Part shown: positions 4,709 to 29,562 of the stretch, one piece after another
How the letters are laid out: each line of letters begins with the position of its first letter
Numbering within the stretch: position 1 is the first letter of the stretch
Source of the DNA: Planctomycetota bacterium
GTDB taxonomy: Bacteria; Planctomycetota; Planctomycetia; Pirellulales; UBA7805
DNA length: 49,144 nt
Assembly: GCA_036337375.1 (NCBI GenBank)
Contig: JAYZEI010000003.1
Span: forward strand, 1-49,144
Direction: 5' to 3'
Program-made: the position numbers and the translations under genes
The notes under the pieces: model-generated
Databases searched by the model: none
The model's input: the letters and a program-made list of their open reading frames with translations, nothing else
What the model was told of the DNA's origin: nothing

Positions 4709-4939
4709 TTATCGAGCGTGATAGCATTCGCGACTGCCGACACAATTGCAGCGATCGACCGGCGCATCGTCCGGGCCGACAATGTGCTGCGTGAGGTTGC
4801 ACCAGCAATAATGGCTTCCAGCTTCGTCGAGATGCGATGGATTCAGGTCGCCGGTGACATACATCGCCTTACTGCGCAAATGAACGCAGGCGGGCCCGGC
4901 AGTCACATCACTTTCGTTTACGGTCCGCTGGTAACTCAT
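4709..4939 (-). CDS. Small Cys-rich hypothetical protein (76 aa), fourth gene of the molybdoenzyme operon
   Basis: ATG overlaps the TGA of the FAD subunit (ATGA at 4936-4939) with GGAG upstream; six Cys in the pattern CxHLRSK...CWC...GPD...CxC...C. Confidence 0.7.
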   Translation of the reverse strand: MSYQRTVNESDVTAGPACVHLRSKAMYVTGDLNPSHLDEAGSHYCWCNLTQHIVGPDDAPVDRCNCVGSRECYHAR

Positions 4940-5934
4940 GCGTAGACTCCTCCCGTTGGCGCGGTGGTAGCTTGCAGCAATGCACGTTTTACGGCGACTT
5001 TTGCCAACTGTACTTTGTATTCATTTTGGGAAAGCGGCGCTGCGGCGGATACCGCCGCTAGGCCTGCGGCCTCGGCCGTCGACTCGTTGATCGGCTGACC
5101 GACGATATCTTGTGTTGCTTCCGACGAAACCCAAGGTATCGGCGCGACTTGACCGAGTACGATTTTGGCCCGCTCAACCAGGCCGCCGCGAAGCGAAACA
5201 GCCACCGCCGCTGCAGCGAGCGGATCGTCCTGTCCTTGGCCATGGTGAACTTCGTAGGTTGCGCTGATCACGGTCGGCGAACTGGGAATCACAATCGCCG
5301 TCACCACCTGGTTCCGCTTGAGCACGTTTTCGCGTTGCCCTTCACGGCGTGGGGTTTGATACAACTCTTCGAGCGATATCTGTCGCTGGTCGGTCGTTTT
5401 GGGGCCGGCGATACGGACTTCAGTACCCAGCGCGACCAACGCCGGTGCGAGTCGCGACGCGTTGACGAACTTTGCGGGGCCGCTGTTTCCAAGAATCGCG
5501 TGAAAACGATTGTCGCCGTCCACAACCATCCGGCCGTTTTCCGCCAACAGTCCGTGGCCGTCGCGAAAATACCAACATCGCGGCCGCCGGCACAATTCGC
5601 CAGCCAGCGTACTTTGCGATGGGAACTGGATATTTGCCGTGCCGTCGATCGCCTGCCGCAAGGCGTCGAACGGTTCGGTCAGCGGGCAGTCTCGGATTTC
5701 GTCCAATCGCACCGCCGCGCCGATAACGAGGTTGCCCGCTTCGTCGGTGTCGATGCCTTGCATTTCTGCGACGTCGTTGACGTTAACCACAAACTGCGGT
5801 GTAACGATCATCTGCTTCATCAGGCCGATCAAATCCGTGCCGCCGGCGAGCAGCTCGGTCTTGTCCGACTCGGCCGACAATAGATCGAGAAGTTCGTCAA
5901 GGTTGTCGGGTTGTGCGTAGTCGAAGTTGTTCAT
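4936..5934 (-). CDS. Xanthine dehydrogenase/aldehyde oxidoreductase family FAD-binding subunit (PaoB/YagS-like)
   Basis: AGGTDL FAD motif, RPRCWYFR, NRFHAILG, LGQVAPIPW, PLSQNEYKV. Confidence 0.93.
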   Translation of the reverse strand: MNNFDYAQPDNLDELLDLLSAESDKTELLAGGTDLIGLMKQMIVTPQFVVNVNDVAEMQGIDTDEAGNLVIGAAVRLDEIRDCPLTEPFDALRQAIDGTANIQFPSQSTLAGELCRRPRCWYFRDGHGLLAENGRMVVDGDNRFHAILGNSGPAKFVNASRLAPALVALGTEVRIAGPKTTDQRQISLEELYQTPRREGQRENVLKRNQVVTAIVIPSSPTVISATYEVHHGQGQDDPLAAAAVAVSLRGGLVERAKIVLGQVAPIPWVSSEATQDIVGQPINESTAEAAGLAAVSAAAPLSQNEYKVQLAKVAVKRALLQATTAPTGGVYA

Positions 5935-5970
5935 AGCTGGTTCCTTTTTAACCGTTCGGGGGTTACGTCT

Positions 5971-6010
5971 TTCACCCCTCCCCGGCCCTCCTCATCAAAA
6001 GAGGAGAGAG
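5971..6010. repeat. REP-like palindromic intergenic element
   Basis: TTCACCCCTCCCCGGCCCTCCTC-atcaaaa-GAGGAG hairpin; a related copy lies on the opposite strand near 43465-43502. Confidence 0.55.
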
Positions 6011-6017
6011 ATCAAAA

Positions 6018-8231
6018 TTAGGCATTTTTTAGCGTGTCCAGGACCCGCTTTGGCGTTAATGGCAAAACGGGAACGCGGACGCCGAGGGCGTTACAGACGG
6101 CGTTCGAAATCGCCGCGCCGGTACCGATTACCGGCGGCTCGCCGAGTCCGATGACGCCGCGGGCCCGCTGGCTTTCGGGTTCGTATAGCTCCACAACGAT
6201 GTCGCCGATATCGCCCAGGCGAGGCAGTTTGTAATCGGATAATTCCGCGTTCACAAACGCGCCGGTTTTGGGATCCATGATTCTTTCTTCGAACAGGCTG
6301 TAGGCAATCCCCATAATCACGGCGCCATAAACCTGGCTGGCCGCGGACTTGCGATTGATGATCAACCCCATGTCCTGAACGGCGACGACTGTCTTAATCA
6401 TGACTTGGCCGGTTTCCTTATCGACCGCGACGTGCGCCATTTGCACGCCGCCGACGCCTTCGTCGGAAAGTGGAGATTTCGCGCCACGGCGATGGCTGGC
6501 TGTGGTTTCCAGCGGGTTCATTCCAAGCAGCCCGCAGGCTCCTTTCCAACTGAGGCCCTGCTTTGCGTTTCCGCGGACTTGAATCCGGCCGCCGGTTGCT
6601 TCCAGCGACGCGGCATCCACGCCGAGTTTCGTCGCCACCAGCCCGAACAAATGCGAGGTGGCGTCTTGTGCCGCGCGGCGATGCGATTCGGCAACGGCTC
6701 CGACGGTGGTACTCCCGCCCGAAGCACCGCTGAAGGGGTACTTCGACGAACCGATGTTTACTTTGATGTGACCGACCGGCAAACCGAGAGTCTCGGCCAG
6801 AACCATCGCGCAGACGGTCTTTGTTCCTGTGCCTAGATCCTGCGTCCCGCAGTAGGCTTCAACCCCGCCGTCGGGATGAATCTTCAGCAGGCACGTCGAC
6901 GAATTCGCCACCCCGCCCCACTCGTGGATGGCCATCCCCAGTCCGTCGACAACCGAGCCTTTTTTAGGCCCCTTGCCGTGTGGATGCCATTTGGCCTGCC
7001 AATCGATCAGTTTGGCGGCAACTGCCATTTCGTCCGCATAAACCTCAGCCGTTTGCCGCGACTCGATGTTGACCAGGTTTTTGCGAAAGATATCGTAGCT
7101 GTTCGCGCCCATTTCTGCGGCTAGGTCGTCGTACGCCGTCTGGCTAATCGCGCAGGCTTGTGGGTGGTTGGGCGCCCGCCAAGCGCGGGCAGGATCGGCA
7201 TTGACTTTGACCGCAGTCGAACGCCGCCGATAATTCTTCGGGCGATACACATACGGGATCACTCTGTCACTGACTCCGCCGCCCGTAAACCCGGAACTTC
7301 CCCACTGGTGTGAATCCCAAACCTGAACAATGCCCTTCTCGTCGGCGCCGAGTTTTACCCGGATAAAACCGGACGGCCGATTGCCGGCGATTTTCAGTTC
7401 CTGGTCGCGATCCAGCATGAATTTGACGGGACGGCCGGTCTTCTTGGCGATTTCCGCCGCGGCAATTCCCCAGTAGTCGGGCCGAAATTTGCTGCCAAAT
7501 CCGCCACCGACGTACTCGCAGTGGACATCTACTTCGTCGGCCGTTATCCCCAGCGCGTCGGCGAAGCCGTCGTCGGTGCGGGAGACATTTTGGGTGGACA
7601 ACTCAACTTCTAACCGGTTGCCGTTCCAACGCAGCGTCGAACCATGCGGTTCCAGACAGCAGTGTGTGATCGCCTGAATGCCATATTCGGCCTCGACCAC
7701 GTGCTTGGAGGCTTTCAGCAGCCGCGAAATCTCCTTTTCTTCGAATTCGTCCTCGTCCTCGTCGTCACCCGGTTCGCGTTCCAGCTCAGTTTTGCCACCG
7801 GCCTTCTGGGTGCGGCCGGCCTTCGTTGCGGCATTCAGGTTTTCCTCTTTAACGAAAACGTCCAACAGTTCGTATTCGACCTTCAACGCTGCAACGCCGG
7901 CGGCGGCAGCGCCTTCGGATTCGGCCGCGACGGCCGCCAGCAACTCACCTTGGAAGTGAATTTCGGGCAGCTTCTCGCCCTTGGGTTCGCGGAGGACGTG
8001 GACGCAGACGACACCGGGAACTTTTTCGGCGGCGGCGGCGTCGATCGACTTAATTCGGCAATGCGCGTGGGGGCTGTCGAGCGACTTCACAATCAGCTGA
8101 TTTTCAAAGTTCACGTCGTAGGTGTACTTGGCGGCACCGGTCGCTTTATCCAGACCGTCCAGCCGATCGAGTGATTTGCCAATGACTTTGGCGTTCTTTG
8201 CGGAAGGCCAGTTGTATTGAGCTTCAGCCAT
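6018..8231 (-). CDS. Xanthine dehydrogenase family molybdopterin-binding subunit (PaoC/YagR-like)
   Basis: KATGAAKY, LEPHG, GGGFGSK, RAP, QDLGTGT, SGGSTT and the catalytic-Glu motif GLGEPP. Confidence 0.95.
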   Translation of the reverse strand: MAEAQYNWPSAKNAKVIGKSLDRLDGLDKATGAAKYTYDVNFENQLIVKSLDSPHAHCRIKSIDAAAAEKVPGVVCVHVLREPKGEKLPEIHFQGELLAAVAAESEGAAAAGVAALKVEYELLDVFVKEENLNAATKAGRTQKAGGKTELEREPGDDEDEDEFEEKEISRLLKASKHVVEAEYGIQAITHCCLEPHGSTLRWNGNRLEVELSTQNVSRTDDGFADALGITADEVDVHCEYVGGGFGSKFRPDYWGIAAAEIAKKTGRPVKFMLDRDQELKIAGNRPSGFIRVKLGADEKGIVQVWDSHQWGSSGFTGGGVSDRVIPYVYRPKNYRRRSTAVKVNADPARAWRAPNHPQACAISQTAYDDLAAEMGANSYDIFRKNLVNIESRQTAEVYADEMAVAAKLIDWQAKWHPHGKGPKKGSVVDGLGMAIHEWGGVANSSTCLLKIHPDGGVEAYCGTQDLGTGTKTVCAMVLAETLGLPVGHIKVNIGSSKYPFSGASGGSTTVGAVAESHRRAAQDATSHLFGLVATKLGVDAASLEATGGRIQVRGNAKQGLSWKGACGLLGMNPLETTASHRRGAKSPLSDEGVGGVQMAHVAVDKETGQVMIKTVVAVQDMGLIINRKSAASQVYGAVIMGIAYSLFEERIMDPKTGAFVNAELSDYKLPRLGDIGDIVVELYEPESQRARGVIGLGEPPVIGTGAAISNAVCNALGVRVPVLPLTPKRVLDTLKNA

Positions 8232-8838
8232 TTCGGCCTCCTTTCACAATCGACGTAGCAGCTTGGATGACGTTCGCGTATGTCCCGCACCGACAGATAT
8301 TACCGTTGAGTCCGCGGCGTATCTCGGCTTCCGATGCTTTGGGATGCTTGCTCAAGAAAGCTCGCACAGCGAGGACGAAGCCTGGCGTGCAGAAGCCGCA
8401 TTGTTCGGCGTCATGCTGGACAAATGCCTGCGGGATGGCGTCGGGTTTATCGCCGCCGAGGCTCTCGACGGTTTCAATCTCCTTGCCGCGTGCCGCCAGT
8501 GCCAAGGTCGTTGAGGCCATAATCGGCTTGCCACCAACCAGCACGGTACTCGCGCCGCTGCTGCCGTCGCTGCTGACGGGTTTCGCGCCCGTCAGTTCGA
8601 GTTGATATCGCAAAACTTCAAGCAGCGTCGTTCGCGGCTCAACGGTAACGCGGTGCGATTTACCGTTGATGGTCAGCGAAATGGTCGTCGCGCCGCTAAT
8701 TACCTTTTTCGCGCCTTTCTCTTCCGCCATAGCTTCGGCGGTGGCGGTTCCCAGCGCGGTGGCGGCTGCCGCTGCGCTGGACCCTTTGAGAAATTCACGG
8801 CGAGAGAAGCCAGACCCGTTTTCGGATGTGCCTGCCAT
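8224..8838 (-). CDS. Fe-S subunit of the molybdoenzyme (PaoA/YagT-like), Tat signal; first [2Fe-2S] motif degenerate
   Basis: Tat motif SRREFLK; EPRTTLL..LR; intact QCGFC...CRC; N-terminal cluster motif reads SSDGSSGAS. Confidence 0.93.
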   Translation of the reverse strand: MAGTSENGSGFSRREFLKGSSAAAAATALGTATAEAMAEEKGAKKVISGATTISLTINGKSHRVTVEPRTTLLEVLRYQLELTGAKPVSSDGSSGASTVLVGGKPIMASTTLALAARGKEIETVESLGGDKPDAIPQAFVQHDAEQCGFCTPGFVLAVRAFLSKHPKASEAEIRRGLNGNICRCGTYANVIQAATSIVKGGRNG

Positions 8839-13087: not shown

Positions 13088-14053
13088 ATGTCAAAGGCGA
13101 AATCGTCGAAGAAACCGGGCGGTTCGGCCAGCTCGTCAGCTTCTGGCCAAACCAATCGCGAAGTGGTCATTGAAACGCGGAATCTCTCGAAAGTCTATCG
13201 CGATTTTTGGGGTCGTCAAAAGGTGCGGGCGCTGAAAGCGCTCGACCTAAAGGTTCACCGCGGCGAAGTCTTCGGGTTGCTCGGCCCGAACGGTTCGGGA
13301 AAATCGACGACCATAAAGATTCTTTTGGGACTGCTTTTTCCCACCGGTGGCGAGGCACTGGTTCTAGGCCGCAGCGCGACGGATGTCGCTAAGAACGAGC
13401 GTATCGGCTATTTGCCCGAAGAATCGTACCTCTATCGGTTTTTGAATGCCGTCGAAACCCTCGATTTTTATGGCCGACTGTTTAACATGCCCGCCAAACA
13501 GCGCCGCGCGCGGGCGAGCGAGTTGATTGAGATGGTCGGCCTGGCGGGCGCGCAGAGACGTCCGCTCAAGGAGTACTCCAAAGGTATGGCTCGGCGTATC
13601 GGTCTGGCGCAGGCGCTAATCAACGATCCGGAATTAATTCTGCTCGACGAACCGACGACGGGCCTCGATCCGATCGGCACGAAGCAGATGAAAAACCTGA
13701 TCATTAAATTGAAGGAACAGGGAAAGACGGTTATCCTCTGCAGTCACTTATTGGCCGATGTTCAGGACGTGTGTGACCGCATCGCCATCCTCTATCAAGG
13801 CGAGTTGAAAGAACTAGGCCGCGTGGACCAGCTACTAGAAGTCAGCGACGTCACACAATTGCGGACGTCACGCCTGAGCGAGCAGGCGGAAGCCGACGTT
13901 CGCGCCGTCGTTGAACGGCACGGCGCCGAGATTCTTGCACTCGAGCATCCGACGACGACGCTCGAAGAGTTGTTCCTGGGAATCGTTCGCGAAAGCGAAG
14001 CCCGTCCGGGCAGGCGTGTGACATCCGGTCGCGATGGGGAGACCCAAGAGTGA
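13088..14053 (+). CDS. ABC transporter ATP-binding protein (ABC-2 exporter type)
   Basis: Walker [10 protein letters not shown], signature YSKGM, Walker B ILLDEP, SH switch. Confidence 0.95.
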
Positions 14054-16266
14054 GCGGTTTGGACATCGAATACAAGATCGTCCCCTTTTTGGAATGGCTC
14101 TTTGGGCGGGCGGCGGCGGAAGACGGCACAGGTGCCACCGAAGGCGCATGGGCGACTTTTTGGCAAACGGTGCTAGTCCTATTTCTAATCGGGGTTTTGG
14201 TCAAAGTTGGCGTATTGACGGTCAGATTTTTTCACATTGCCCTGACAAAGGGGTTCGGCCAGGCCGGAGTCGCAGTGATCGACGATCTTGTGGGGATGCG
14301 GCGAACGATTACAAATTTCGAGCTATTTCGTGTCTCCCCTCGCCGTGTCTGGGGTCTGGCGATGCTCGCCATGCGCGAATCGTTTCGCCGCAACGTCTGG
14401 GTGGCGCTGGTCGTGTTTGTCTTGATGTTGATGTTTGCCGGCTGGGTTTTGAACCCGGACAGCGACCAGCCCGGCACGCTGTACCTCAACTTTGTGCTTT
14501 CGGCGACAACTTATTTGATGTTCCCGGTCATCATCTTGCTAGGATCGTTCAGTTTGCCGAACGACATCAAGAACCGAACGATTTACACCGTGGCCAGTAA
14601 GCCGGTCCGCGCGAGTGAGGTTGTGATGGGTCGGACGCTGGGGTTCATCGGGATCGGAACGTGTTTGTTGGCGGTCATGGCCGTCTGCAGTTACATTTTT
14701 GTCGATCGCGGCCTCGATCATCGACACGAACTTGCAGCCGAAGACCTGGAAAGGAAGGACAACAAACTGGTCGGTAAAACATCGATCGGCGGCCGGCATC
14801 GTCACAGCCTGTCCATTCCAGTCGATGCGTTTACGCCGGAGTTGTCGTTCGAGCCGGAGCCTACGACCGCCGGTCCGGTCGTTGCCCGCGCCGGCGAATC
14901 GGCGGAGGCGGCGGGTTTGGCGGTCGGCGATGTCGTTGAATCGATCGATGGCAGCGGGACTTTGCAACTGTCCGTGGATGACATTATACGTGCTCTTCAG
15001 GGGTCGGTCGGTTCGACCGTTGAATTGGGTATTTCGCGGGGAGGCTCCCGCCAGACTATCCAGTTGCAGCGGATCGTCAGTGAAGTTTTCACCGACGTCA
15101 ATAAAGGCCACCGGCATCGAGTGACTGCGCGATGGAGTGAGGATTCAAATGCGGTGGAATACGAAGTCGGTCCGCCCGAGGGAATGTTGCTGGCCCGGAC
15201 GCCGCACTACGGCGACCTGCGATTTCTTGATCCGTATGGGAAACCGCGGGAAAGAGGAATCAGCGTAGGCGATCTGTACTCCTACCGCAGTTACATCGCC
15301 GGCCGGACGAGAGCCGCGGCCATCTGGACGTTCGATGAATTGTCGGCGGCAAGCTACCCCGACGGCTTGCCGCTGGATATGAATATCCGGATTTATCGTT
15401 TCACCACCGGCGATATTCAAGCGGGGATTCACGGCAGCCTGCAGCTTGTCCATCCAGACCGGCAAGTCAACAAGCGCAGTCGCGAGTATCGGATTCTCGT
15501 CGGCGGCGCGGAGGATACGGCGGAAGATGTAACCGCGATTTCAAAAGAGTTTCAAGTCGGCCGCACGCTCATTCCTCGCCAAACGACCGATCCCAGCGGC
15601 GAGCCGATCGACATTTTTGAAGACTTGGTTAACAACGACGGACAAGTTGAGGTGTGGTTGCGCTGCTCGGACAGCCAGCGGTACTTTGGCGTCGGCTATG
15701 CGGACGTTTACGTCCGAGCTCGGGACGGATCTTATACGTTGAACTTCGCCAAAGCCGTGATGGCGATTTGGTTGCAAATGACCATCGTTGCCGGACTGAC
15801 CGTGTTCTTCAGCACCTTTTTAAGCGGGCCTATCGCACTTTTGTTGTCGATCACCGTGATCATCTTGGGATTTTTTAAAAGCAAGATCGACGCCATGATA
15901 ATTTTTGTGACGGAGGGCAAAGCACGAATGCTTGAACTGCTGCCCTCGCACGAGCGTCACTGGGGTGGGGGGCCCTTGGAGGCAACCTATCGAATCATCA
16001 CACAAATGAACCAGACTTCGGACCTCCCGGACAACGGCTTGTCGTCGGCGATCAAATTCATGGACTACTATCTGGCGAAAGGTATCGAGGCGGTTCTCCA
16101 CCTGATTCCGAGCTTTGAAAAATTTGACGAAGTCCGGTTTCTATCGCACGGTTACGCGATTCAAACATCAATGCTGCTTCAGCACGTTTCAACCACGTTA
16201 GCGTTTTTGATCGCCGCATATATTCTCGGGTATCTGATGCTTAAACAACGGGAATTGGCCGCATGA
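14050..16266 (+). CDS. ABC-2 type permease with large extracytoplasmic domain (HRH motifs and a PDZ-like segment)
   Basis: N- and C-terminal TM blocks, [26 protein letters not shown] motif, [20 protein letters not shown]-like segment; GTGA coupling to the upstream gene. Confidence 0.85.
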
Positions 16267-17843
16267 ACAAACTCAGCCGTTTCCAGCGAAAGATCGTCTA
16301 TCTTGTCGCCGTCGCCATCCTGTTATTTCCGCTCTATTGGTTCGGCCATCCGCGGACGACGCAATCCGACGGCGGCAAACTCGCGCAACTTCGTATGGTG
16401 CACCGACTGAGCGAGGCGCGGCTCGGAAAAATCAATCCGGCCGGAGCGAGTATGAAACTGGCGACGTTTGGCCTGCACGCTTTTGCCGTTAACTGGCTAT
16501 GGCTCAAAGCGATTGATTACAAACAGCGTGAGGATTGGGTTAATTTCGACGCAACGCTCGAGCAAATTACGCATCTGCAGCCTCATTTCGTCAAGGTCTG
16601 GGATTTTCAAAGTCACAACGTTGCTTTTAACATTTCGGTGAAATTCGACGACTATCGGGACCGTTATCGCTACGTCATCAAGGGTTTCAACTTGCTGCGG
16701 AGGGGGATTAGCTACAACGAAGAGCGTCACAAACTGCCCCGTGCGCTGGCCGGCTACGTCAGCCTGAAGATTGGTCGATCGGACGACAAAGAGTTTTACC
16801 GCGTCCTCTTTCGCAACGACCACGACTACCACGCACCGCCCCGCGACCAAAATAACTTAATTGGCACCCGCTACGAGGGACGGCCTGAGAATCTGACCGA
16901 TTGCTTTTTGGTCAGTAAGTGGTGGTATCTTGAAGCGGAACGGCTGATTGACGAAGGCCTCGCCGAATACGGCTTGGTCTATCCAGTCTTTTTTCACAGC
17001 AGTTCGCCAATGCAGCAGATGAACTACGCCAAGACGCTGGAAGAAGAGGGTATTTTCGACGAGCGCCCGCGCCAGGCATGGGAAGAGGCCGCCGAATTGT
17101 GGCGGAGTTTCAGCCAACGATCCTACGAGTCCTCACTTGGATTCTATTACCGCCTGACCGAATTCGATGAGGTTCGCAAACAGCGCGACGAAATTGCCGA
17201 TCAACTATTGGCGGAAGAGCCCGGATTGCGGGAAAAGATGCAGCAGAAGGTCTTGAATGATTTGACGGACGAGGAACGTACGGCCTACAACAAAGCTCAC
17301 GCCGAGCGGACACCCAAAGAAGTGTATCTCACTCAGAAAATTAATGATCGGCTAACCATCGGTGCACAGGAATTGGCCGAAAAAATGTTCCCGATTAATC
17401 GCGCCAAAGGTTTCCAACTCGCCGACCGCTACTACCAAACGCAGAAGCGCTACAGCGCGATTTACAACGGTCGTGACACCGTCAATTACAATTACTGGGA
17501 TCACCGCTGCCGGATCGAACAGATGCCCGAAACGGTCGCTGCCCGCAAAGCAGTTTATCTGGCCCGCGAAGCTTACGAAGATAATCCGCCCGAGGCGCTG
17601 GCCAAGTATGAAGAGGCATTAAAATTATGGCGGAAAGTACTCGACGAGTATCCTGTGATGGCCGAGCAGGAAGTGTTCGTCCGCGACATGGTCGACATGA
17701 TCGACGGCAAACAGGGGTACCGGGACACCCTCGCTCAAAATCGGGAGGATCGCGGCCGAGATCTTCCCGAGGACTTCATTCTTGACGACTTGCTCAAGCG
17801 GTGGGATGAAATCCAGAAGCAATACACGGTCGGCGGCGGTTGA
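16263..17843 (+). CDS. Membrane-anchored, helical/TPR-like extracytoplasmic protein associated with the ABC transporter
   Basis: Single N-terminal TM helix; ITHLQPHFVKVWDFQSHNVAFNISV motif of a PVC ABC-associated family; ATGA coupling. Confidence 0.8.
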   Translation: MNKLSRFQRKIVYLVAVAILLFPLYWFGHPRTTQSDGGKLAQLRMVHRLSEARLGKINPAGASMKLATFGLHAFAVNWLWLKAIDYKQREDWVNFDATLEQITHLQPHFVKVWDFQSHNVAFNISVKFDDYRDRYRYVIKGFNLLRRGISYNEERHKLPRALAGYVSLKIGRSDDKEFYRVLFRNDHDYHAPPRDQNNLIGTRYEGRPENLTDCFLVSKWWYLEAERLIDEGLAEYGLVYPVFFHSSSPMQQMNYAKTLEEEGIFDERPRQAWEEAAELWRSFSQRSYESSLGFYYRLTEFDEVRKQRDEIADQLLAEEPGLREKMQQKVLNDLTDEERTAYNKAHAERTPKEVYLTQKINDRLTIGAQELAEKMFPINRAKGFQLADRYYQTQKRYSAIYNGRDTVNYNYWDHRCRIEQMPETVAARKAVYLAREAYEDNPPEALAKYEEALKLWRKVLDEYPVMAEQEVFVRDMVDMIDGKQGYRDTLAQNREDRGRDLPEDFILDDLLKRWDEIQKQYTVGGG

Positions 17844-17916: not shown

Positions 17917-18933
17917 CTAGTTCTGCGGGGCGACGACCGGCCGAATGACATTGCAGTTTATCGCCGCCAACGCGTTCTTCAGAAGCTGAAAGGAATCTTC
18001 GTCCGGGCACGTCCCGATGATTGCGCCGCCGGACCCGGCAAACTTGGCGCTCGCGCCGGTCTGCCGCGCGGTATCCACCATCTGCAAGTGATTCGCCGAG
18101 ATGTCGCAAATCGATTGGCGTTTGTCGAAATTTTGATCAATCAACAAACTCAGGCGGGCCGCGTCACCGGAGGCTAACGCCGCCCTCGCGGCCTCTGTGA
18201 ACTCCGCGAAAGATTCCATCGCGGCCAAAACAACCTGGTCGCCCCGCTGGAAGCGTGCGCGGAGCGGGGCGTGTGTGACTTCGGTTGGCTCGCCAACTTC
18301 GCTGCTGTAGGCGAGATACAGTGGCGGCAAAATCGCCGGATCGAGCGGTTCGTAAACGCCGCACTTCATGCCGTGTTGCTCGGACTCCCGGTTCTGACTG
18401 AAGTCCATATAGACCAGACCCTCGTAAACCTGAATGACGCGATCCTGCAGCCCGGCGGTGATGCCCAACTCGGCCACTTCGACGCTCATCGCCAGGGATG
18501 GGAGCACCTCCTGTGGGATCTCCACGTCGTAAAAGTCAATCAATGCTCGCAACGTGGCAACGATAATGGCGCTGCTGCCGGCCAATCCTACCTGCCGCGG
18601 GATGTTGGTCTGGTAGCGGATCGCGAAATTACGATCATGCAGTCGGATGTTCTGGCTGTCGCAATAATCGACAAATCGCTTGATCGTCGCCTTCACCAGC
18701 CGCACGCCTCCGTAGTAGCCGTGCAGTTGGACGTCGTGCACCAATTCGCGGACGGACTGAAAGCAGCTTTGATCCTGCTGGCTCGAGACGATCTCGGCCG
18801 TCGGCCATTCGTAGAGCACGGCTTCAGCAAAGAAATTCCGAACGACGAGCGAAATTGTTTTGCCGTTGTACCCGTCCGATGGGTTGCCCATCAGTCCAGC
18901 ACGAGCGTAAGTGCGATGGCGAATCAATTGCAT
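17917..18933 (-). CDS. Glucuronokinase-like GHMP kinase
   Basis: ARAGLMGNPSDGYNGKTIS, GYYGGVRL, YQTNIPRQVGLAGSSAII, AGLQDRVIQVYEGLVYMDF and KFAGSGGA match plant-type glucuronokinase. Confidence 0.88.
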   Translation of the reverse strand: MQLIRHRTYARAGLMGNPSDGYNGKTISLVVRNFFAEAVLYEWPTAEIVSSQQDQSCFQSVRELVHDVQLHGYYGGVRLVKATIKRFVDYCDSQNIRLHDRNFAIRYQTNIPRQVGLAGSSAIIVATLRALIDFYDVEIPQEVLPSLAMSVEVAELGITAGLQDRVIQVYEGLVYMDFSQNRESEQHGMKCGVYEPLDPAILPPLYLAYSSEVGEPTEVTHAPLRARFQRGDQVVLAAMESFAEFTEAARAALASGDAARLSLLIDQNFDKRQSICDISANHLQMVDTARQTGASAKFAGSGGAIIGTCPDEDSFQLLKNALAAINCNVIRPVVAPQN

Positions 18934-18948
18934 GGTGGATTTCAGATT

Positions 18949-19836
18949 TTACTGATCCAACAACTTGGCGATATGCTCGCGAAGTTTGCTGCCATGATGT
19001 GGGTCGGCCAGCGCGAACTCGACAAACGTGCGAAAGTAGCTGTCGAAATTGCCGATATCGAAACGGCGCTCGCCCGCATCGAGCCGAATGCCGATGCCTT
19101 TGCCGCCCGCCTGCAACACGCGGCGGATCGCATCGGTTAATTGAATCTCGCCACCCTTGCCGGGTTCGGTCTCGGCCAGTTTTTCAAAAATCGAGGCGCC
19201 GAACACGTAACGTGACGCGACGGCCAGTGTGCTGGGCGCCTCTTCGACGCTCGGTTTTTCCACCAAGTCCTCCAGTTCAAACACGTCGCCCGCCTCACCG
19301 CGAGGTTTGGCAATGCCGTAATGTACGACGTCGCGGCGATCAGCAATCTCTTCAAATGCAATAACGACGTCGGCCCTTTCTTGTTCGTACTGATGTACCA
19401 TCCGTTGAACTATATTCGACTGCGCGTGCAGCCCGATAATCGAGTCGCCCAGTGCCACGACAAACGGCTGGTCGGCCACAAAGGGCTGCGCGCAAAGCAC
19501 GGCGTGCCCCAGACCAAGCTGTTCGCGCTGACGCGTGTAGGCGAATTCAATCGGTTCGCGCTCGAACTGCAGTGCTTCGAGTTGATCTTCGCGGCCCGTC
19601 TGCCGCAGGTAAGCGATCAATTCACTATTCCAGTCAAAAAAATCTTCAATGGACTGCTTGCCATTGCCGGTAATGAATAGGATTCGATGAATCCCAGATT
19701 GGGCCAACTCTTCGACCACATACTGCACGACCGGCTTGCGGCCAACGGGAAGCATTTCCTTGGGCTGTGATTTGGTCGACGGCAGCAGGCGGGTGCCAAT
19801 GCCGGCGACCGGAACAACGGCTAAGTCGATGGCCAT
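18949..19836 (-). CDS. galU: UTP:sugar-1-phosphate uridylyltransferase (GalU family)
   Basis: VPVAGIGTRLLPSTKSQPKEMLPV, RQREQLGLGHAV, LVEKP, GEIQLTDAI, DIGN. Confidence 0.9.
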   Translation of the reverse strand: MAIDLAVVPVAGIGTRLLPSTKSQPKEMLPVGRKPVVQYVVEELAQSGIHRILFITGNGKQSIEDFFDWNSELIAYLRQTGREDQLEALQFEREPIEFAYTRQREQLGLGHAVLCAQPFVADQPFVVALGDSIIGLHAQSNIVQRMVHQYEQERADVVIAFEEIADRRDVVHYGIAKPRGEAGDVFELEDLVEKPSVEEAPSTLAVASRYVFGASIFEKLAETEPGKGGEIQLTDAIRRVLQAGGKGIGIRLDAGERRFDIGNFDSYFRTFVEFALADPHHGSKLREHIAKLLDQ

Positions 19837-20070: not shown

Positions 20071-21114
20071 TTGTTGCTGATTCTGATTTGTCCATACGTC
20101 GAGGTTGACGCAATTTCTGCCATTGCACTGGTAACTGGCGCCAACGGTTTTCTGGGCCGTTACATCGTCGAGCAACTGCTCGAACGAGGCAGCCGAGTCC
20201 GCGCGTTTTGCCGTAGCCGCGACGACCATCTAGAGCAGCTCGGCGCGGAGCTGCATTTGGGTGATATTCGCGACCGTGAAGCGGTTTGCGCGGCGTGTGG
20301 CGGGATCGATGTTGTCTACCACGCGGCGGGCGTGGCGGGAATTTGGGGGCCGTGGGAACGCTTTCACTCGATCAATACGGCGGGCACGGCGCATGTGATC
20401 GATGGCTGTCGGCAGCGGGCCGTACCAAAACTCGTTTATACGAGCAGCCCCAGCGTAACGTTCGACGGCAGGCCGCAGGAGGGCATTGATGAATCGGCAC
20501 CGTATTCCAGTCGCTGGCTCTGCCATTATCCGCACACCAAGGCGCTCGCCGAGCAAGCTGTTTTGGCGGCCAATGATGACCAACTGGCGACCTGTAGTTT
20601 GCGTCCGCATTTGATTTGGGGTCCCCGTGATCGGCATCTCGTCCCCCGGCTGTTGCAGCGAGCGCGAGCGGGCCAATTGAAACGCGTTGGCGACGGGACG
20701 AATTTGGTTGACATGATCTACGTTGAAAATGCGGCAGCGGCGCACTTGCGAGCGGCCGACGTGTTGGGGCCGAGAACGGCGGTGGCGGGCCGCGCTTATT
20801 TCATCAGCCAAGGTGAGCCGGTCAACTGCTGGGCATGGATCAACCAAATTCTAAATTTTTCGGGAATCCCCGCAGTCCAGAAGGCAATTTCCATGGGGGC
20901 CGCCTGGCGCATCGGCCACGCGCTGGAATGTGTGCATCGGTTATTCGGCATCGAACGGGAACCACGCATGACCCGGTTTCTCGCCGCTCAGCTGGGCGGT
21001 TCGCATTATTTCGATATCGAGCGAGCCCGCAACGATTTCGGCTACTCGCCACAAGTTTCGACGAACGAGGGCATGGTGCGGCTGGGGAACTGGCTGGCAG
21101 ACGGCAAAAAGTAA
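20071..21114 (+). CDS. oleD: OleD-like extended SDR (2-alkyl-3-oxoalkanoate reductase / 3-beta-HSD family); start codon uncertain
   Basis: TGANGFLG, YTSSPSV, YPHTK (YxxxK), LRPHLIWGPRD, C-terminal MTRFLAAQL..SHYFDI..AR.DFGY typical of OleD. Confidence 0.8.
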   Translation: MLLILICPYVEVDAISAIALVTGANGFLGRYIVEQLLERGSRVRAFCRSRDDHLEQLGAELHLGDIRDREAVCAACGGIDVVYHAAGVAGIWGPWERFHSINTAGTAHVIDGCRQRAVPKLVYTSSPSVTFDGRPQEGIDESAPYSSRWLCHYPHTKALAEQAVLAANDDQLATCSLRPHLIWGPRDRHLVPRLLQRARAGQLKRVGDGTNLVDMIYVENAAAAHLRAADVLGPRTAVAGRAYFISQGEPVNCWAWINQILNFSGIPAVQKAISMGAAWRIGHALECVHRLFGIEREPRMTRFLAAQLGGSHYFDIERARNDFGYSPQVSTNEGMVRLGNWLADGKK

Positions 21115-21223
21115 TCGGCCTCGACCGCCTGGGCGAGATTCAGGCCTGAAACTGAAACCAGCAAGAGCGAGGCTCCGGCCGATCCCAGCCACCGCAAGCA
21201 GACCGACCTGAGGTGGTCACTCC

Positions 21224-21252
21224 TTGCCAATTCCCCCAAATATAGATAGCCT
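21224..21252 (+). promoter_or_regulatory. Sigma70-like promoter of the fabF cluster
   Basis: TTGCCA-17-TAGCCT, same architecture as the promoter at 12928. Confidence 0.6.
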
Positions 21253-21291
21253 TAGGGGTTCGAACTTTCGCTCTTACGCTCGTTATCGCTC

Positions 21292-22536
21292 ATGATTTAC
21301 GCGCCCACCGACAGCCGCCGCATTGTCATTACCGGAGTCGGCCTGACTGCGCCGAATGGCAATAGCCTGTCCGAATTTCGAGAGGGCCTGCTTGCGGGTC
21401 GTAGCGGAGTTAGCCGCTACAAGATTCGGTACGTGGGCGACACCTTGGCGGGCGTTTGCGACTACGACCAACTGCGTTATCAAAAACGCAAAGAAGTTCG
21501 TCGCGGCACGCGGGCCGGGAGCATCGGCGTTTACTGCGCACACGAGGCCGTAGCCGACTCGGGCATCGACTGGGACAACACCGACAAATCTCGCGTTGGG
21601 GTGTACATCGGCGTGACCGAGCACGGCAATGTGGAAACAGAAAACGAAGTTTACGAGTTGAAGGGTTACGACTACGACACCCAGTTTTGGTCGCACCACC
21701 ACAATCCACGTACAGTGGCCAACAATCCGGCCGGTGAAATCACGTTGAACATGGGCATCACAGGCCCTCATTATTCCATCGGCGCGGCGTGCGCCGCAGG
21801 AAACGCGGGGCTGATTCAAGGCGCGCAAATGTTGTGGCTGGGCGACTGCGACGTGGCTCTGGCGGGCGGTGTTTCGGAGAGCATTCATACGTTCGGCATA
21901 TTCGCTAGCTTCAAGAGCCAGGGCGCTTTGGCCGAACATGAAGATCCGGCCAAAGCGTCGCGGCCCTTCGACGAGCAGCGCAACGGAATCGTCGTGGCCG
22001 AAGGCGGCTGTATGTATGTTCTGGAACGCTACTCGGATGCCAAGGCCCGCGATGCGAAGATCTACGGCGAGTTGGCCGGGTACGCGATCAACAGCGACGC
22101 CAGTGATTTCGTTTTACCCAACCCGGAACGGCAGGCCGAGTGCATCTCGTTGGCGCTGCAGCGAGCGGGTATTGCAGCGGAACAAGTTGACATTGTCAGC
22201 ACGCATGCGACGGGGACCAGCGAGGGCGACATTCAAGAATGCCAGGCATTGCGGCGTGTGTTTGGTGACAGCCAAAAGACGCTGATCAATAATACGAAAA
22301 GTTTCATCGGCCACGCCATGGGCGCAGCGGGTGTGCTGGAATTGACCGGAAATCTGCCGGCTTTCGACGACGGTGTTTGCCACCCGACAATCAATGTTGA
22401 ACAGGTGGACCCCCAGTGTGCGGTCACCGGCCTCGTTTGCGGTCAGCCTCGTGAGACCGACGGCGTGAATTATATTCTTAATAATTCCTTCGGGATGCTT
22501 GGAATTAACTCAACGGTAGTGATAAAAAAGGTTTGA
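21292..22536 (+). CDS. fabF: Beta-ketoacyl-ACP synthase II family
   Basis: Cys-His-His triad: GAACAAG, STHATGT, KSFIGHAMGAAG; SRPFD; NSFG. Confidence 0.92.
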   Translation: MIYAPTDSRRIVITGVGLTAPNGNSLSEFREGLLAGRSGVSRYKIRYVGDTLAGVCDYDQLRYQKRKEVRRGTRAGSIGVYCAHEAVADSGIDWDNTDKSRVGVYIGVTEHGNVETENEVYELKGYDYDTQFWSHHHNPRTVANNPAGEITLNMGITGPHYSIGAACAAGNAGLIQGAQMLWLGDCDVALAGGVSESIHTFGIFASFKSQGALAEHEDPAKASRPFDEQRNGIVVAEGGCMYVLERYSDAKARDAKIYGELAGYAINSDASDFVLPNPERQAECISLALQRAGIAAEQVDIVSTHATGTSEGDIQECQALRRVFGDSQKTLINNTKSFIGHAMGAAGVLELTGNLPAFDDGVCHPTINVEQVDPQCAVTGLVCGQPRETDGVNYILNNSFGMLGINSTVVIKKV

Positions 22537-22588
22537 ATTAACGGTTGACGATCAAGAACGAAACAGAGCGAACGGGACGGAGTTTAGA

Positions 22589-22849
22589 ATGACGACCGAC
22601 GAAATCCGCGAAGCGGTGATTGATATTCTTAGCGACATTGCACCGGACGAAGACCTTGGCGGATTGGACGACGGCGTGGCGTTCCGCGAACAACTCGAAA
22701 TGGACAGTATGGATTTTCTCGATATTGTCATGGAGTTGCGGAAGCGATACCGTGTTCAGGTTCCCGAGGAAGATTACGGCGCGTTGGCCAGTATGAGCAG
22801 TACGGTCGAGTATCTTACGCCGAAGTTGGAAGATACGGAAAAAGTCTAG
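22589..22849 (+). CDS. Acyl carrier protein
   Basis: 86 aa, acidic, LEMDSMDFLDIV phosphopantetheine Ser motif; GGAG RBS. Confidence 0.92.
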   Translation: MTTDEIREAVIDILSDIAPDEDLGGLDDGVAFREQLEMDSMDFLDIVMELRKRYRVQVPEEDYGALASMSSTVEYLTPKLEDTEKV

Positions 22850-22972
22850 TATTCGGGGTTCGGCTGCAGAAACAGTTATTTAACACCCTGTCTCAGCCGC
22901 CGGTATTTCTGCAGTACGCAGCCGGCGACGTGGACTGGGCATCGAAGAAAGATGCCCGCAGGAACGCTCGCG

Positions 22973-24361
22973 ATGTACGATACCGTCATTATCGGCGCCG
23001 GCATGTCGGGTTTGGCCGCGGGAATCCGGCTGGCGTATTACGATCGGCGCGTTTGCATTCTTGAACGGCACACGACGATCGGCGGTTTAAATTCGTTCTA
23101 TCGATTGGGCGGCCGCAACTACGATGTCGGCCTGCACGCGGTCACGAATTACACCCCCAAGGGCGCCCGCAAAGGTCCGTTGGCACGATTGCTGCGGCAG
23201 TTGCGGATGCAGTGGGAGGACTTTGGACTCGCGCCGCAGATCGGTTCTGAGATCGCGTTTCCCGATGTGCGGATGCGGTTTGGAAATAATTTTGAGTTAT
23301 TTCAGGCCGAAGTCGAGCGGTGCTTTCCGGATCAGAGAGATAATTTCAAAAAACTGCTCGACAAGATTGTCGATTACGATGACTTGAAACAAGATTTGTT
23401 CAATATCACGGCACGGCCGATTCTGCGAGAGACGATTACCGATCCGCTGCTGGTCGAAATGATACTGTGTCCGATTATGTGGTACGGCAATCCGCGGGCG
23501 CGGGACATGGATTTTGGGCTGTTCTGTATTATGTTCCGCAGCATTTTTCTTGAGGGGTTTGCGCGACCATTTGAGGGTGTGCGAATCATATTAAAGAAAC
23601 TGGTCCACAAGTTTCGTAATCTCGGTGGCGAACTAAAACTGCGGGCGGGCGTGAGTCGCATTAAAGTGGAAAACGGCAGGGCGAGTGGTGTGGTGCTGGA
23701 GGACGGCCAGGAGCTTGCCGCGAGGCAGGTGCTCTCGTCGGCCGGATGGATTGAAACGATGCGGATGTGCGACGAAGCTGAAGAGGTCGACGCTTCGCAG
23801 GCGGGGAATCTGTCATTTGTCGAGGCAATTGCGGTGCTCGATAAGCAGCCGCGAGAATTGGATCACCACCGGACGACCCTGTTTTTCAACGACTCGGAAA
23901 AATTCCATTGGGAACAACCTGACGAACTGTGCGACGTGCGGACGGGCGTTATTTGTTCGCCAAACAACTTTGCTTACGACGACGGCGCATCGTTGGACGA
24001 CGGCATGATCCGCATCACTGCGCAGGCAAATTTTGATCGCTGGATCAGTTTGGAAGACGAGGAATATCAACTGGCCAAACTGCGGTGTTACGATCGCGTT
24101 TTTGAGTCCGGGGTCCGTTTCATGCCTGACGTGCGAAATCATATCATCGATACGGACATGTTTACTCCTAAGACAATCCGGCGATTTACTTCGCACGACA
24201 ACGGCGCGGTCTACGGCGCGCCCCACAAGAGACTGGACGGCGAAACACCCGTTTCGAATTTGTTTCTGTGTGGGACCGACCAGGGATTCGTCGGCATTAT
24301 CGGCGCGATGTTCAGCGGGGTGGCGATGGCGAATCGCTGCCTGAGATCGCTGGTCGCTTAA
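22973..24361 (+). CDS. FAD-dependent oxidoreductase, phytoene desaturase (CrtI)-like
   Basis: IIGAGMSGL Rossmann motif, GGLNS.Y...[15 protein letters not shown]...GAVYG, NLFLCG; AGGA RBS favours ATG 22973. Confidence 0.88.
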
Positions 24362-24395
24362 TCGGTTCTTCATCGACCAATTTACAATCAAACTC

Positions 24396-25868
<1,473 letters not shown>

Positions 25869-25906
25869 TTTCGTCAGCGCGGGCCGCTCTAGAAGTCGAA
25901 GAACTT

Positions 25907-26353
25907 ATGACTCTTGAAGCTATCAAGGCGGCTATACCGCATCGCGAACCTTTTTTATTGCTCGACGAAATCGTTGAGCAAGGCGAAAACCGAATCGTCT
26001 GTCGCAAGAAGTTTACGGGTGATGAGTTTTGGTATACCGGCCATTATCCGGATTTTCCGTTGACGCCAGGTGTGATTCTCTGCGAAGCAGCAATGCAGGC
26101 CGGTGGTGTGCTGTTGTCCCAATTTGTTGGCGAGGGGCAGGTTCCGGTCGTTACCCGCTTAAACGACGCGAGGTTTAAACGCATGGTCCGCCCCGGCGAT
26201 ACGGTGGAACTTGAAGCAAAAATAACCGACCGGGTCAGCAAAGCGATTGTACTTGCGGCCAAAGTGACCGTTGCAGGGAAGCTAGCGGCAAGGTTGTCGT
26301 TCGTATGCACCTTTGCCGTAGTCGAAACCGATTCCCCAGGCGAACCGTCGTGA
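25907..26353 (+). CDS. fabZ: 3-hydroxyacyl-ACP dehydratase (FabZ family)
   Basis: [36 protein letters not shown]. Confidence 0.9.
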
Positions 26354-27147
26354 ATTTCCTAGATCTGGATGGCAAGACGATTGTTGTTTTTGGCGTCGCC
26401 AATCGCAAAAGTGTGGCGTACCACGTCGGCCGGGTTTTGAGTGAAGCTGGAGCTCGCGTCCTGTACGTTGTTCGCTCGGAAGAGCGTAAATCACAGCTCA
26501 ATAAAATTTTGAACGACGCACCGATTTTTGTTTGTGACGTTGAAGATGAGCGGCAAATCGCCAGCCTTCGTGAACGGGTTGCCGTCGGGGAAACGGTGAT
26601 TCACGGACTGGTGCACTCGATTGCATTCGCCGAATACGAGGATGGCATAAAACCGTTTCATGAAACGGGTAAGCGCGAGTTTCTACGCGCGGTGGATATC
26701 TCGTGCTATTCGTTGATAGCTATTTGCAATCAATTCAAGGAATTGCTCGATGCCGATGCGTCCGTCGTAACAATTTCGATCTCGACGACGCGGATGGCTA
26801 GCGAGAATTATGGCTATATGGCGCCGGTGAAAGCGGCGTTGGACAGTTCACTGGCATTCCTCGCCAAATCGTTCAGCGCGTTTTCGCGAGTGCGATTTAA
26901 CGCGGTTGCGCCGGGGTTGCTGAAGACCTCGGCATCGGCGGGAATTCCGGGATACGTCGATTCGTATTTGTACGCCGAAAAGATCATCCCGCGAAATCAG
27001 GCAGTTACCACCGAGGAGGCAGCAAACGCCGCGGCGTTTCTACTGAGTTCACGGTCGAGCGGCATTAACGCGCAGCAGATAATTGTCGATGCCGGAATGT
27101 CGATCAATTATTTCGACCGCGAGGTTGTGAAACGTATGGCTGAGTGA
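26350..27147 (+). CDS. fabI: Enoyl-ACP reductase (FabI family)
   Basis: [27 protein letters not shown]-x6-K (YGYMAPVK), KTSASAGI; GTG start overlaps the fabZ TGA. Confidence 0.9.
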
Positions 27148-27747: not shown

Positions 27748-29562
27748 CTATTCGCCCGCCAAGCCGGGCACGATGTTGCCGGTTGCTCGGCGAACGGTGT
27801 TGTCGTGACAGAGCACTTTTGACGCGCCAACGAAGTATGTGTGGGAGTCGGCTACGACCAAATTGTATGTCTCGGCCTCTTCGGCCTGATCCACGGTGCT
27901 GGCCGTCGCCGTTCCGTTGACGGCATGTAACTGTGCCCCGCTTTTTAAGTCGCGAGACTTGACCCAGCCATCCCCGGAAACCCAGAACAAGTGGCCGCCG
28001 CTGGTGGTGACTTCACTCCCGTTGATGCTGATCTTGGTCAGTTTGCTCTTGGGCCGAACGGTCGTGGCCAAAACGGGTTTATAGACAAGTTCTCCGGTTT
28101 CAACATCCTGCGAGAGCACGAGGTCGCCGACCTGAATCTTTTCAATTGCGCGAGGTCCCGTGTTGGTCCAGACCATCGTACCGGCCGCAAGGCAGTCGTA
28201 TGCGCCCCCGCCGCCGCTGGCGAGCAGGCTGGGCGGAATGGCCGACTGATCGATGAGCGAGATTTCTTCTTCGCGGTAAGTCGTAGCCAGTGTCTTGTTA
28301 CCGCTGACATAAACTTCGTTGTGCAGGTTCCACCACTCCCACCACTGTCGCGGTGAGTTGAAAACGTTGTCCATGCCTGTCGTGATTTCCAAAGCATCCA
28401 TAATGCGGCGATTTAAATCAATCGTCCGATTATTCTGATCGGTGACGGCTTCCTCTCGCGTTTCCGCCCGATTCCGCACGTCCGAGAGCGCGCGGCGGGT
28501 CGTATCGCGACGGTTGCCGCTGCCATCCACCCGAGGGATGCGCTGGTAGTTGGTATCCAGCACCGTCAGTTCGCGGCTGTCCTGTCCTTCGCGATAAAAT
28601 GCGTGGCGATAGGTGAGCCGCCCACCTCGGCCTTGCAGTACTTCGCGTTGCGTTTGAATCGGCAATCGCAAGGCAGCCAGCATGGCCGGGACAAAGTCGT
28701 CTAACTCACGGTCTTGAAGTTGTTTCGCCGCCGCTTCGCGAACCTTACCGAATTCAGAAAAGATCGCGTGTCGCGCCAAGGAAGTCGAGGCCTCGCTGCC
28801 GCTGAGACCGTCGAGAATATCGATGGCCAGCATCGCCATCGGTTCGCTGTACGTCGAAAGCACGACCTCGACCGCGGGAACGGCGGTCGGATCGGCAATG
28901 TCTTTTAACTGGGCTTTGGCATACTCACGCTGTTTTTTGCTTCGCGACAACACGTTATCCCGAAGTTTTTCCAACCGGGGTCGCCAGAGGGCTAGTGAAG
29001 TGCGAAGTTGTTCGCCGCGGGTCCGCTCGTCGATCAATTCCCGGCGAGTCAGCCACTCATTGTCCACCCGAACGAAGCCCAGCCGCCGTCGAGCTTCGGC
29101 GTGATCGGTTTCGTGTTCAAGGATGCGAGTGAGGTGTGCGCGTTCTTGTTGGAATAGCCGGTTGTCGTGACACCAATTCGCCGTCTTCAGGTTGCCGTGG
29201 GCAGTATCCTTCTCCTCGCTCCGCTTTACGCGATAGCGGGCTAATTTTTTATCGCGGCCGCTGATATCCGGGACTTCGTCTGCTTTGACCCACTGATTTT
29301 TGTATTGCACGTGGCCGGTATGCCAGAGCGCCGGTTTGCATTCGGCCGACTCTGCGAGCGCCTTCTTGAGCAACTGCTCGCGGGCCTTGCCCTGACCGTA
29401 AATCTCACGCTGCAGCGCCTCCGAGACATATTGATCGGCGGCCTTGACCTTTTCGGTCTTGGTTGCCGCGAGGGTCTCGGGCGACCCGAGGGTCAGTGCC
29501 CATCCGTATAAAACCAAAACTCCGAGTGCTTCACGACTGAAGCGAAGATGTGAGCTGGACAT
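27748..29562 (-). CDS. Secreted helical/HEAT-like protein with C-terminal Hint (intein-like) domain
   Basis: Signal peptide; Hint at 27799-28194: CLAAGTMVWT..GPRAIEKIQVGDLVLS...TTSGGHLFWV...TYNLVVADSHTYFVG...CHDN. Confidence 0.9.
   Translation of the reverse strand: MSSSHLRFSREALGVLVLYGWALTLGSPETLAATKTEKVKAADQYVSEALQREIYGQGKAREQLLKKALAESAECKPALWHTGHVQYKNQWVKADEVPDISGRDKKLARYRVKRSEEKDTAHGNLKTANWCHDNRLFQQERAHLTRILEHETDHAEARRRLGFVRVDNEWLTRRELIDERTRGEQLRTSLALWRPRLEKLRDNVLSRSKKQREYAKAQLKDIADPTAVPAVEVVLSTYSEPMAMLAIDILDGLSGSEASTSLARHAIFSEFGKVREAAAKQLQDRELDDFVPAMLAALRLPIQTQREVLQGRGGRLTYRHAFYREGQDSRELTVLDTNYQRIPRVDGSGNRRDTTRRALSDVRNRAETREEAVTDQNNRTIDLNRRIMDALEITTGMDNVFNSPRQWWEWWNLHNEVYVSGNKTLATTYREEEISLIDQSAIPPSLLASGGGGAYDCLAAGTMVWTNTGPRAIEKIQVGDLVLSQDVETGELVYKPVLATTVRPKSKLTKISINGSEVTTSGGHLFWVSGDGWVKSRDLKSGAQLHAVNGTATASTVDQAEEAETYNLVVADSHTYFVGASKVLCHDNTVRRATGNIVPGLAGE

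Follow-up and report, generated by a model that had tools for sequence, protein, structure and literature searches.

A candidate uronic-acid salvage gene pair, a glucuronokinase-family kinase and a GalU-like uridylyltransferase, in Planctomycetota and other bacteria

A gene pair and the family of its kinase

The genes for a GalU-like sugar-1-phosphate uridylyltransferase (P0001) and a GHMP kinase of the glucuronokinase family (P0002) lie side by side in a 49,144-nucleotide stretch of DNA from a Planctomycetota bacterium (contig JAYZEI010000003.1 of assembly GCA_036337375.1, positions 1 to 49,144). This whole stretch, called the window here, is contig C3 of a metagenome-assembled genome of 3.22 Mb in 267 contigs, estimated to be 64% complete, and the closest protein relatives of the window are labelled Pirellulales or Planctomycetota. 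An earlier note on this DNA, made from the letters alone, had described a GalU-family gene followed after 15 bp by a kinase gene, and this arrangement is borne out, as both open reading frames (ORFs) are intact and run head to tail on the same (minus) strand:

18949-19836, minus strand: GalU-like sugar-1-phosphate uridylyltransferase gene, P0001 (295 aa), ATG start and TAA stop, first gene of the pair
18934-18948, minus strand: spacer of 15 nt, read in the sequence from the TAA of P0001 to the ATG of P0002
17917-18933, minus strand: glucuronokinase-family GHMP kinase gene, P0002 (338 aa), ATG start, second gene of the pair

P0002 contains the GHMP kinase N-terminal domain PF00288 (9.1e-14); its match to PF08544 (0.0022) is under the cut-off of that model and no NCBIfam model comes near its own. 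The glucuronokinase signature noticed earlier in the kinase is real. A GNPSD block within residues 11-25 matches the Lilium glucuronokinase peptide VGFLGNPSDVYFGR, which is reported to have been used for cloning the plant gene (PMC2823444), residues 13-25 of P0002 being GLMGNPSDGYNGK, and the alignment with the plant and fish enzymes spans the whole protein. At the GNPSD position the heptose kinase 3K85 reads GGGSD. The catalytic motifs are intact: in a co-linear alignment of 30 sequences from bacteria, plants, fish, cnidarians and protists, the ATP-binding motifs II (PRQVGLAGSSA, residues 112-122) and III (GSGGA, residues 300-304) are invariant or nearly so, and there are 20 invariant columns, including GNPSD (16-20), P112, G116 and G300/G303.

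The identity of P0002 to plant glucuronokinase 1 (P0295, Ziziphus jujuba) is 44% over about 320-330 residues, that to the kinase half of a Danio protein (P0163, Danio aesculapii) is 45% (E 2e-94, or 1e-93 in the batch comparison) and that to a Nematostella protein (P0139) is 47%, while P0295 and P0163, related to but not identical with the enzymes assayed from Arabidopsis and zebrafish, are 48% identical to each other. By this measure P0002 is about as close to the plant and fish lineages as those are to each other, and its placement in the glucuronokinase family holds. A word-index search returned at least 8000 relatives; the best 120 of the 8000 are Planctomycetota-type proteins with 64-97% identity, many of which carry the JGI name 'glucuronokinase'. 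In an exhaustive search 594 clusters, formed at 50% identity, reached E 1e-30 or better, P0295 among them, and the animal proteins named 'glucuronokinase with putative uridyl pyrophosphorylase' share 44-48% identity across 90-99% of P0002. The family and its pathway were already known from plants and fish, the name was in use in automated annotation, and bacterial homologues in Solibacter, Dyadobacter and Verrucomicrobium had been pointed out in 2010 (PMC2823444).

Association of the kinase with a GalU-like partner

The surroundings of kinase relatives were compared at 80 loci from species-representative genomes. At 62 of these a GalU-like gene is the immediate same-strand neighbour, in two orders: GalU then kinase at 44 loci (49-74% identity to P0001) and kinase then GalU at 18 (38-45%). 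The linked loci are spread over the Planctomycetota, Chloroflexota, Verrucomicrobiota, Thermodesulfobacteriota, Balneolota, Kiritimatiellota, Spirochaetota and other phyla, and at three of the 18 loci that lack a GalU-like neighbour the sequence ends a short way upstream. Beyond the pair itself no gene is conserved at many loci, the next cluster reaching at most 7 of the 80 loci in an ORF clustering that was partly spoiled by antisense ORFs. While this lack of a conserved wider context would suit two unrelated sugar-metabolism genes that share no function and are neighbours by chance, such an explanation is very improbable given same-strand adjacency at so many loci, in several phyla and both orders, and the existence of fusions.

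The two domains are joined in the fused proteins P0123-P0128 (603-633 aa), which contain both PF00483 and PF00288. In P0123 the GalU-like N-terminal half is 42% identical to P0001 (E 5e-70) and the kinase C-terminal half has 52% identity. Long kinase ORFs in three other genomes (G040, G077 and G138; 474-633 aa) were also considered as fusions and rejected, as no Pfam domain is present in their N-terminal extensions, which probably result from ORFs being called too long in GC-rich DNA.

The phyletic pattern was drawn from 151 Planctomycetota genomes, of which only the present one is less than 90% complete, with a kinase orthologue defined by at least 49% identity. Fifteen genomes have the kinase orthologue and 20 have a GalU-type gene, which is missing from the other 131. 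Both are present in 14 of the 15 kinase genomes, and in the fifteenth the kinase gene is at a contig end (Fisher p = 3e-14 for the co-occurrence, an overstated value since related genomes are not independent). The other six genomes with a GalU-like gene have either a partial copy of a P0002-type kinase (G007) or an adjacent sister kinase, described below (G094, G091, G006, G074 and G057), such that all 20 GalU-type genes are accompanied in the genome by a P0002-type or a sister kinase. Because adjacency at the 62 loci, the fusions and the phyletic coupling are three independent lines that agree, sequence comparison identifies the GalU-like gene as the predicted partner of the kinase.

The Pfam matches of P0001 are PF00483 (NTP_transferase, 1.8e-29) and, as the sole other one, PF12804; the UDPGP domain (PF01704) is not matched, in which P0001 differs from the UDP-sugar pyrophosphorylases (USP). 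Its best NCBIfam model is TIGR01099 (galU), where its 281.8 bits fall short of the cut-off, 326.8; relatives of the same type have 280-291 bits, and the MurU models give weak matches. The best solved relative is Bacillus subtilis YngB (1.4e-68), and P0001 was placed by pairwise alignment on the YngB contacts given in PMC7961091. All the mapped nucleotide, magnesium and phosphate contacts are kept, namely A11, G12, K26, E27, Q103, G108, D131 (Mg) and K194 (YngB A13, G14, K28, E29, Q105, G110, D133 and K192), as are three of the four glucose contacts, G174, E193 and V206 (YngB G172, E191 and V204). The fourth, YngB Asp134, is replaced by Ser132. This Asp contacts glucose in YngB (PMC7961091) and in the Pseudomonas enzyme PaUGP, in which the corresponding D131 is reported to help hold glucose and D131A to be nearly inactive (PMC11796359).

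The residue at the Asp site was read in five groups of proteins:

GalU-then-kinase loci (n=44): Ser 42, Thr 1, Ala 1
Kinase-then-GalU loci (n=18): Thr 16, Ser 1, Cys 1
Fused proteins (n=6): Cys 6
Sister-kinase-linked proteins (n=12): Thr 7, Ser 5
Canonical Chloroflexota GalUs (n=30): Asp 25, Val 4, Glu 1

Asp is therefore found in none of the 80 kinase-associated GalU-like proteins versus 25 of the 30 canonical GalUs, the latter being Chloroflexota proteins above the TIGR01099 cut-off from genomes without a kinase orthologue, two of which (G170 and G192) do carry the sister kinase. In a quick, unrooted maximum-likelihood tree (IQ-TREE), a long branch (SH-aLRT 100, length 1.06) parts the P0001-type, fused and sister-kinase-linked proteins from the canonical Chloroflexota GalUs, E. 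coli GalU and the 'kinase then GalU' clade. The earlier note's suggestion of an unusual 'GalU' is thus supported: P0001 has the fold family and the contacts listed above in common with GalU and YngB (TIGR01099; PDB 7B1R, 3JUK and 8B31), and it differs from them in its score below the equivalog cut-off, in Ser132, in its position on the far side of the long branch and in its membership of a kinase-partnered clade.

In the Chloroflexota and Planctomycetota, 12 low-scoring GalU-like genes that lack the Asp each have the sister GHMP kinase as a direct neighbour (at L128, G192:C45, positions 2830-3780 and 3789-4658; also at L129-L140). The motif of this kinase is GNPTD where P0002 has GNPSD, its identity to P0002 is 25-31%, and it matches the galactokinase galactose-binding signature; together with its GalU-type neighbour it makes up a second, uncharacterised module, with another sugar as its probable substrate. 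A further GalU-like match, a distant one of 196.9 bits in which His occupies the Asp site, lies within a 645-aa open frame at G154:C1592:146-985 (L095) that may be another fused form.

A putative route to UDP-glucuronate and its alternatives

The reading that we favour, and regard as reasonably probable, is that the pair is a two-step uronic-acid salvage module, most likely leading from D-glucuronate to UDP-glucuronate (UDP-GlcA). In the first step the kinase P0002 would phosphorylate free glucuronate at C1 with ATP, giving glucuronate 1-phosphate (GlcA-1-P), and in the second the GalU-like P0001 would convert GlcA-1-P and UTP to UDP-GlcA and PPi. We infer the identity of the sugar, the use of the kinase product by P0001, the co-transcription of the genes, and both where the sugar comes from and what becomes of it; the glucuronate would come from polysaccharide breakdown and the product would go into surface glycans.

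The genome encodes three nucleotide-sugar dehydrogenases. One is Ugd-like (468.8 bits for TuaD and 382.3 bits for AglM, both below the equivalog cut-offs), and a second reaches the UDP-ManNAc dehydrogenase cut-off. Judged from these scores, the oxidative route from UDP-glucose to UDP-GlcA is probably present. Because the Ugd-like gene is in the genome as well, the pair would be a second route that supplements the oxidative one, as in plants and zebrafish. Of the second galU and the ugd to which the earlier note had pointed, the ugd-like gene is thus present, along with a UDPGP-type pyrophosphorylase, and no second GalU was found in this 64%-complete genome.

The nearest known systems are those of plants and animals. 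In Arabidopsis, the glucuronokinase GlcAK1 (At3g01640, EC 2.7.1.43) and USP are reported to act in the myo-inositol oxygenase/salvage route (PMC2823444). Plant GlcAK is of the same family as P0002 and has the same GNPSD, PRQxGLxGSSA and GSGGA blocks, and the logic of two steps, from sugar to sugar 1-phosphate to UDP-sugar, is shared; the plant partner, however, is a UDPGP-type (PF01704) USP, whereas here it is a GalU-type protein of about 300 aa (PF00483) encoded by the adjacent gene. In zebrafish DrGKUP, the kinase half of which is 45% identical to P0002 (via P0163), the kinase is coupled to a short 'bacterial-type' nucleotidyltransferase, a putative UDP-glucuronate pyrophosphorylase (PMC3938481). 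The idea of coupling is therefore common to both, and the earlier statement that some animals fuse the kinase to a nucleotidyltransferase is correct, although the animal N-terminal domain is not a relative of GalU (Danio N-terminal half versus P0001: E 0.049 over 69 residues). The animal protein is also a single polypeptide, unlike the two ORFs 15 nt apart in the window, and P0123-P0128, with a true GalU-like half, represent a fusion separate from the animal one. What appears to be new, from the sequence comparisons, is that a glucuronokinase of the plant and fish type is coupled in bacteria to a partner of the GalU fold and not of the USP fold. Salvage systems of the AmgK/MurU and Fkp type likewise combine an anomeric sugar kinase with a nucleotidyltransferase, acting on MurNAc or fucose and bypassing de novo synthesis; they share the two-step recycling logic with the pair and differ from it in the kinase and transferase families and in the sugars.

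Several points weigh against the salvage reading, and they are taken here with the alternatives on which they bear. An identity of 44-47% is insufficient to fix the substrate of a GHMP kinase, and no biochemical study of any bacterial member was found in the literature searched. The same architecture of kinase and GalU-type partner may act on another sugar, for example galacturonate, some other hexose of uronic or 6-modified type, or a neutral one. We consider this unlikely, if the most serious of the alternatives. GHMP sugar kinases switch specificity at modest sequence distance, the plant galacturonokinase is reported to have almost no identity to GlcAK despite its similar substrate (PMC2823444), and the sister GNPTD kinase family, with its Asp-less GalU-like proteins of the same type, implies that such a module serves more than one sugar. 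The closest solved structures to P0002 in a PDB search were heptose kinases (1e-14), and this search found no solved glucuronokinase by which the sugar pocket could be defined. On the other hand, P0002 and the plant and fish enzymes are all about equally distant from one another, those of Arabidopsis (PMC2823444) and zebrafish (PMC3938481) are both reported to be specific for D-glucuronate, with reported Km values of 0.7 mM and 31 µM, respectively, and the conservation is co-linear, with its 20 invariant columns.

The sugar site of P0001 does not settle the matter in favour of glucuronate. Active Klebsiella GalU is reported to have Val at the Asp site and to tolerate changes there (PMC11796359), so the site is near the sugar, yet not universal. 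As the change from Asp to Ser or Thr is found also in the GalU-like proteins paired with the galactokinase-like sister kinase, it would argue for altered or relaxed sugar recognition and not for glucuronate in particular. In addition, the pyrophosphorylase domain of the zebrafish protein is reported to have had extremely low activity in the hands of its authors (PMC3938481).

A different explanation is that P0001 is a plain UDP-glucose pyrophosphorylase, housekeeping or condition-specific, and that a UDPGP (USP-like) enzyme encoded elsewhere uridylylates GlcA-1-P, as happens in plants, the adjacency reflecting joint control of sugar-nucleotide supply for the envelope. We judge this improbable. 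It would account for the conserved contacts and for the Val of the Klebsiella enzyme; moreover, no GalU homologue besides the linked gene was found here or in three of five other genomes, a fourth having only a distant second match of 197 bits, and the linked GalU-like protein of the L063 type scores 344.7 bits, above the GalU cut-off. Because of these last two findings the linked GalU-like protein may also, or only, make UDP-glucose. A PF01704 enzyme of the UDPGP family (460-500 aa) is encoded in 134 of the 151 Planctomycetota genomes, including this one (G000:C109:5363-6250). Set against the 20 of 151 with a GalU-type gene, this count indicates that GalU is not the usual pyrophosphorylase of the phylum, for which the 'eukaryotic' type appears to serve. 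GalU-type genes, absent from most of these genomes, are present only with such a kinase, which speaks against a plain UDP-glucose role, as do the fused polypeptides and two genomes (G014 and G124) that have the kinase and the GalU-like gene and no PF01704 match. Furthermore, three Chloroflexota genomes (G192, G167 and G227) have a canonical GalU together with a low-scoring GalU-like paralogue. In a tblastn search the low-scoring copy in these adjoins the sister kinase (loci L128, L133 and L129), and the GHMP kinase next to it in G192 and G227 is 28-29% identical to P0002 (genome search).

For the word operon, used for the pair in the earlier note, the grounds are the 15-nt gap and the conserved gene order, which suggest co-transcription. 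A terminator scan found no terminator-like site in the spacer. A promoter scan of the pair region detected no promoter, such a scan being uninformative for Planctomycetota, and the only two terminator-like sites are both within the GalU-like coding sequence, shuffled sequence giving more. The genes are on different contigs in 9 of the 14 Planctomycetota genomes that have both, which counts against a tight operon, and the 64% completeness of the present genome is a further weakness.

Extending the favoured reading of the pair as a uronic-acid salvage module, it can tentatively be proposed that the Asp-less GalU-like proteins are a distinct and widespread group of bacterial salvage pyrophosphorylases, each working solely together with a dedicated anomeric GHMP kinase of the GNPSD or GNPTD family. 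P0001 would then be a dedicated UDP-glucuronate pyrophosphorylase with the GalU fold, the choice of sugar being set in part by the change from Asp to Ser, Thr or Cys.

Sugar supply, neighbouring genes and significance

Searches for myo-inositol oxygenase (MIOX, PF05153) gave no match in this genome or in five other pair-bearing genomes, and since no control genome matched either, this negative is weak evidence; on this basis myo-inositol is an unlikely source of the glucuronate. Uronate isomerase (UxaC) was found in four of five genomes checked, with strong matches in G151 and G153 and weak ones in G035 and G105, and was not found in the present 64%-complete genome. This pattern hints, though only loosely, at encounters of such organisms with free hexuronates.

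In eight loci of the Phycisphaerae/Sedimentisphaerales, a gene for a GalE/RmlB-like short-chain dehydrogenase/reductase (SDR) of about 310 aa lies directly 3' of a kinase-then-GalU pair, on the same strand:

L061, L062, L063, L067, L068, L072, L079 and L082, about 5890-6870, plus strand: GalE/RmlB-like SDR, reaching no NCBIfam cut-off

The SDR could be a UDP-GlcA epimerase or decarboxylase, and its position after the pair fits a further modification of the nucleotide sugar. An OleD-like reductase encoded in the window was considered as a pair-linked counterpart and rejected, having only about 24% identity to this SDR.

The genes that flank the pair in the window, a convergent operon of ABC-transporter/PDZ type and divergent genes of lipid type, were not found beside the pair elsewhere, save for scattered superfamily matches. 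The flanking genes and other features of the window are:

14050-16266, plus strand: 738-aa protein with a PDZ match only, encoded downstream of an ABC ATPase and converging on the kinase gene
16263-17843, plus strand: 526-aa protein with no Pfam or NCBIfam match, converging on the kinase gene
20071-27147, plus strand: run of lipid- or polyene-type genes, divergent from the pair
27748-29562, minus strand: 604-aa protein with a C-terminal pretoxin HINT domain (PF07591, 5.7e-25)
4936-8838, minus strand: three-subunit molybdenum hydroxylase of the xanthine dehydrogenase/CO dehydrogenase type

The lipid- or polyene-type run encodes the OleD-like reductase (383.7 bits, cut-off 580), a FabF-like ketoacyl synthase, two FAD oxidoreductases of the CrtI/CrtD family, a FabA-like dehydratase and an SDR resembling enoyl-ACP reductase (FabI-like). 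The pretoxin HINT domain is one found in polymorphic toxin systems, and the small ORFs that adjoin its gene have no family match. The 2Fe-2S subunit of the molybdenum hydroxylase carries a TAT signal.

UDP-glucuronate feeds the synthesis of capsules and exopolysaccharides, the modification of lipid A and the formation of xylose and arabinose donors. To our knowledge, the only textbook source of UDP-glucuronate in bacteria is UDP-glucose dehydrogenase. If the proposed function is correct, the pair would provide a compact set of bacterial enzymes for the one-pot synthesis of UDP-GlcA, the regeneration of which with Arabidopsis GlcAK and USP is covered in a review (PMC11868170). With the pair the pyrophosphorylase step, barely detectable in the zebrafish study, could be tested as well. 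Should the Asp-less GalU-like proteins prove to be a dedicated class, UDP-uronic acids would be made from scavenged sugars independently of both Ugd and NAD. For the polysaccharide degraders among the Planctomycetota, Verrucomicrobiota and Chloroflexota, the salvage reading would mean that uronic acids are reused directly, with no loss of carbon and no demand for NAD+.

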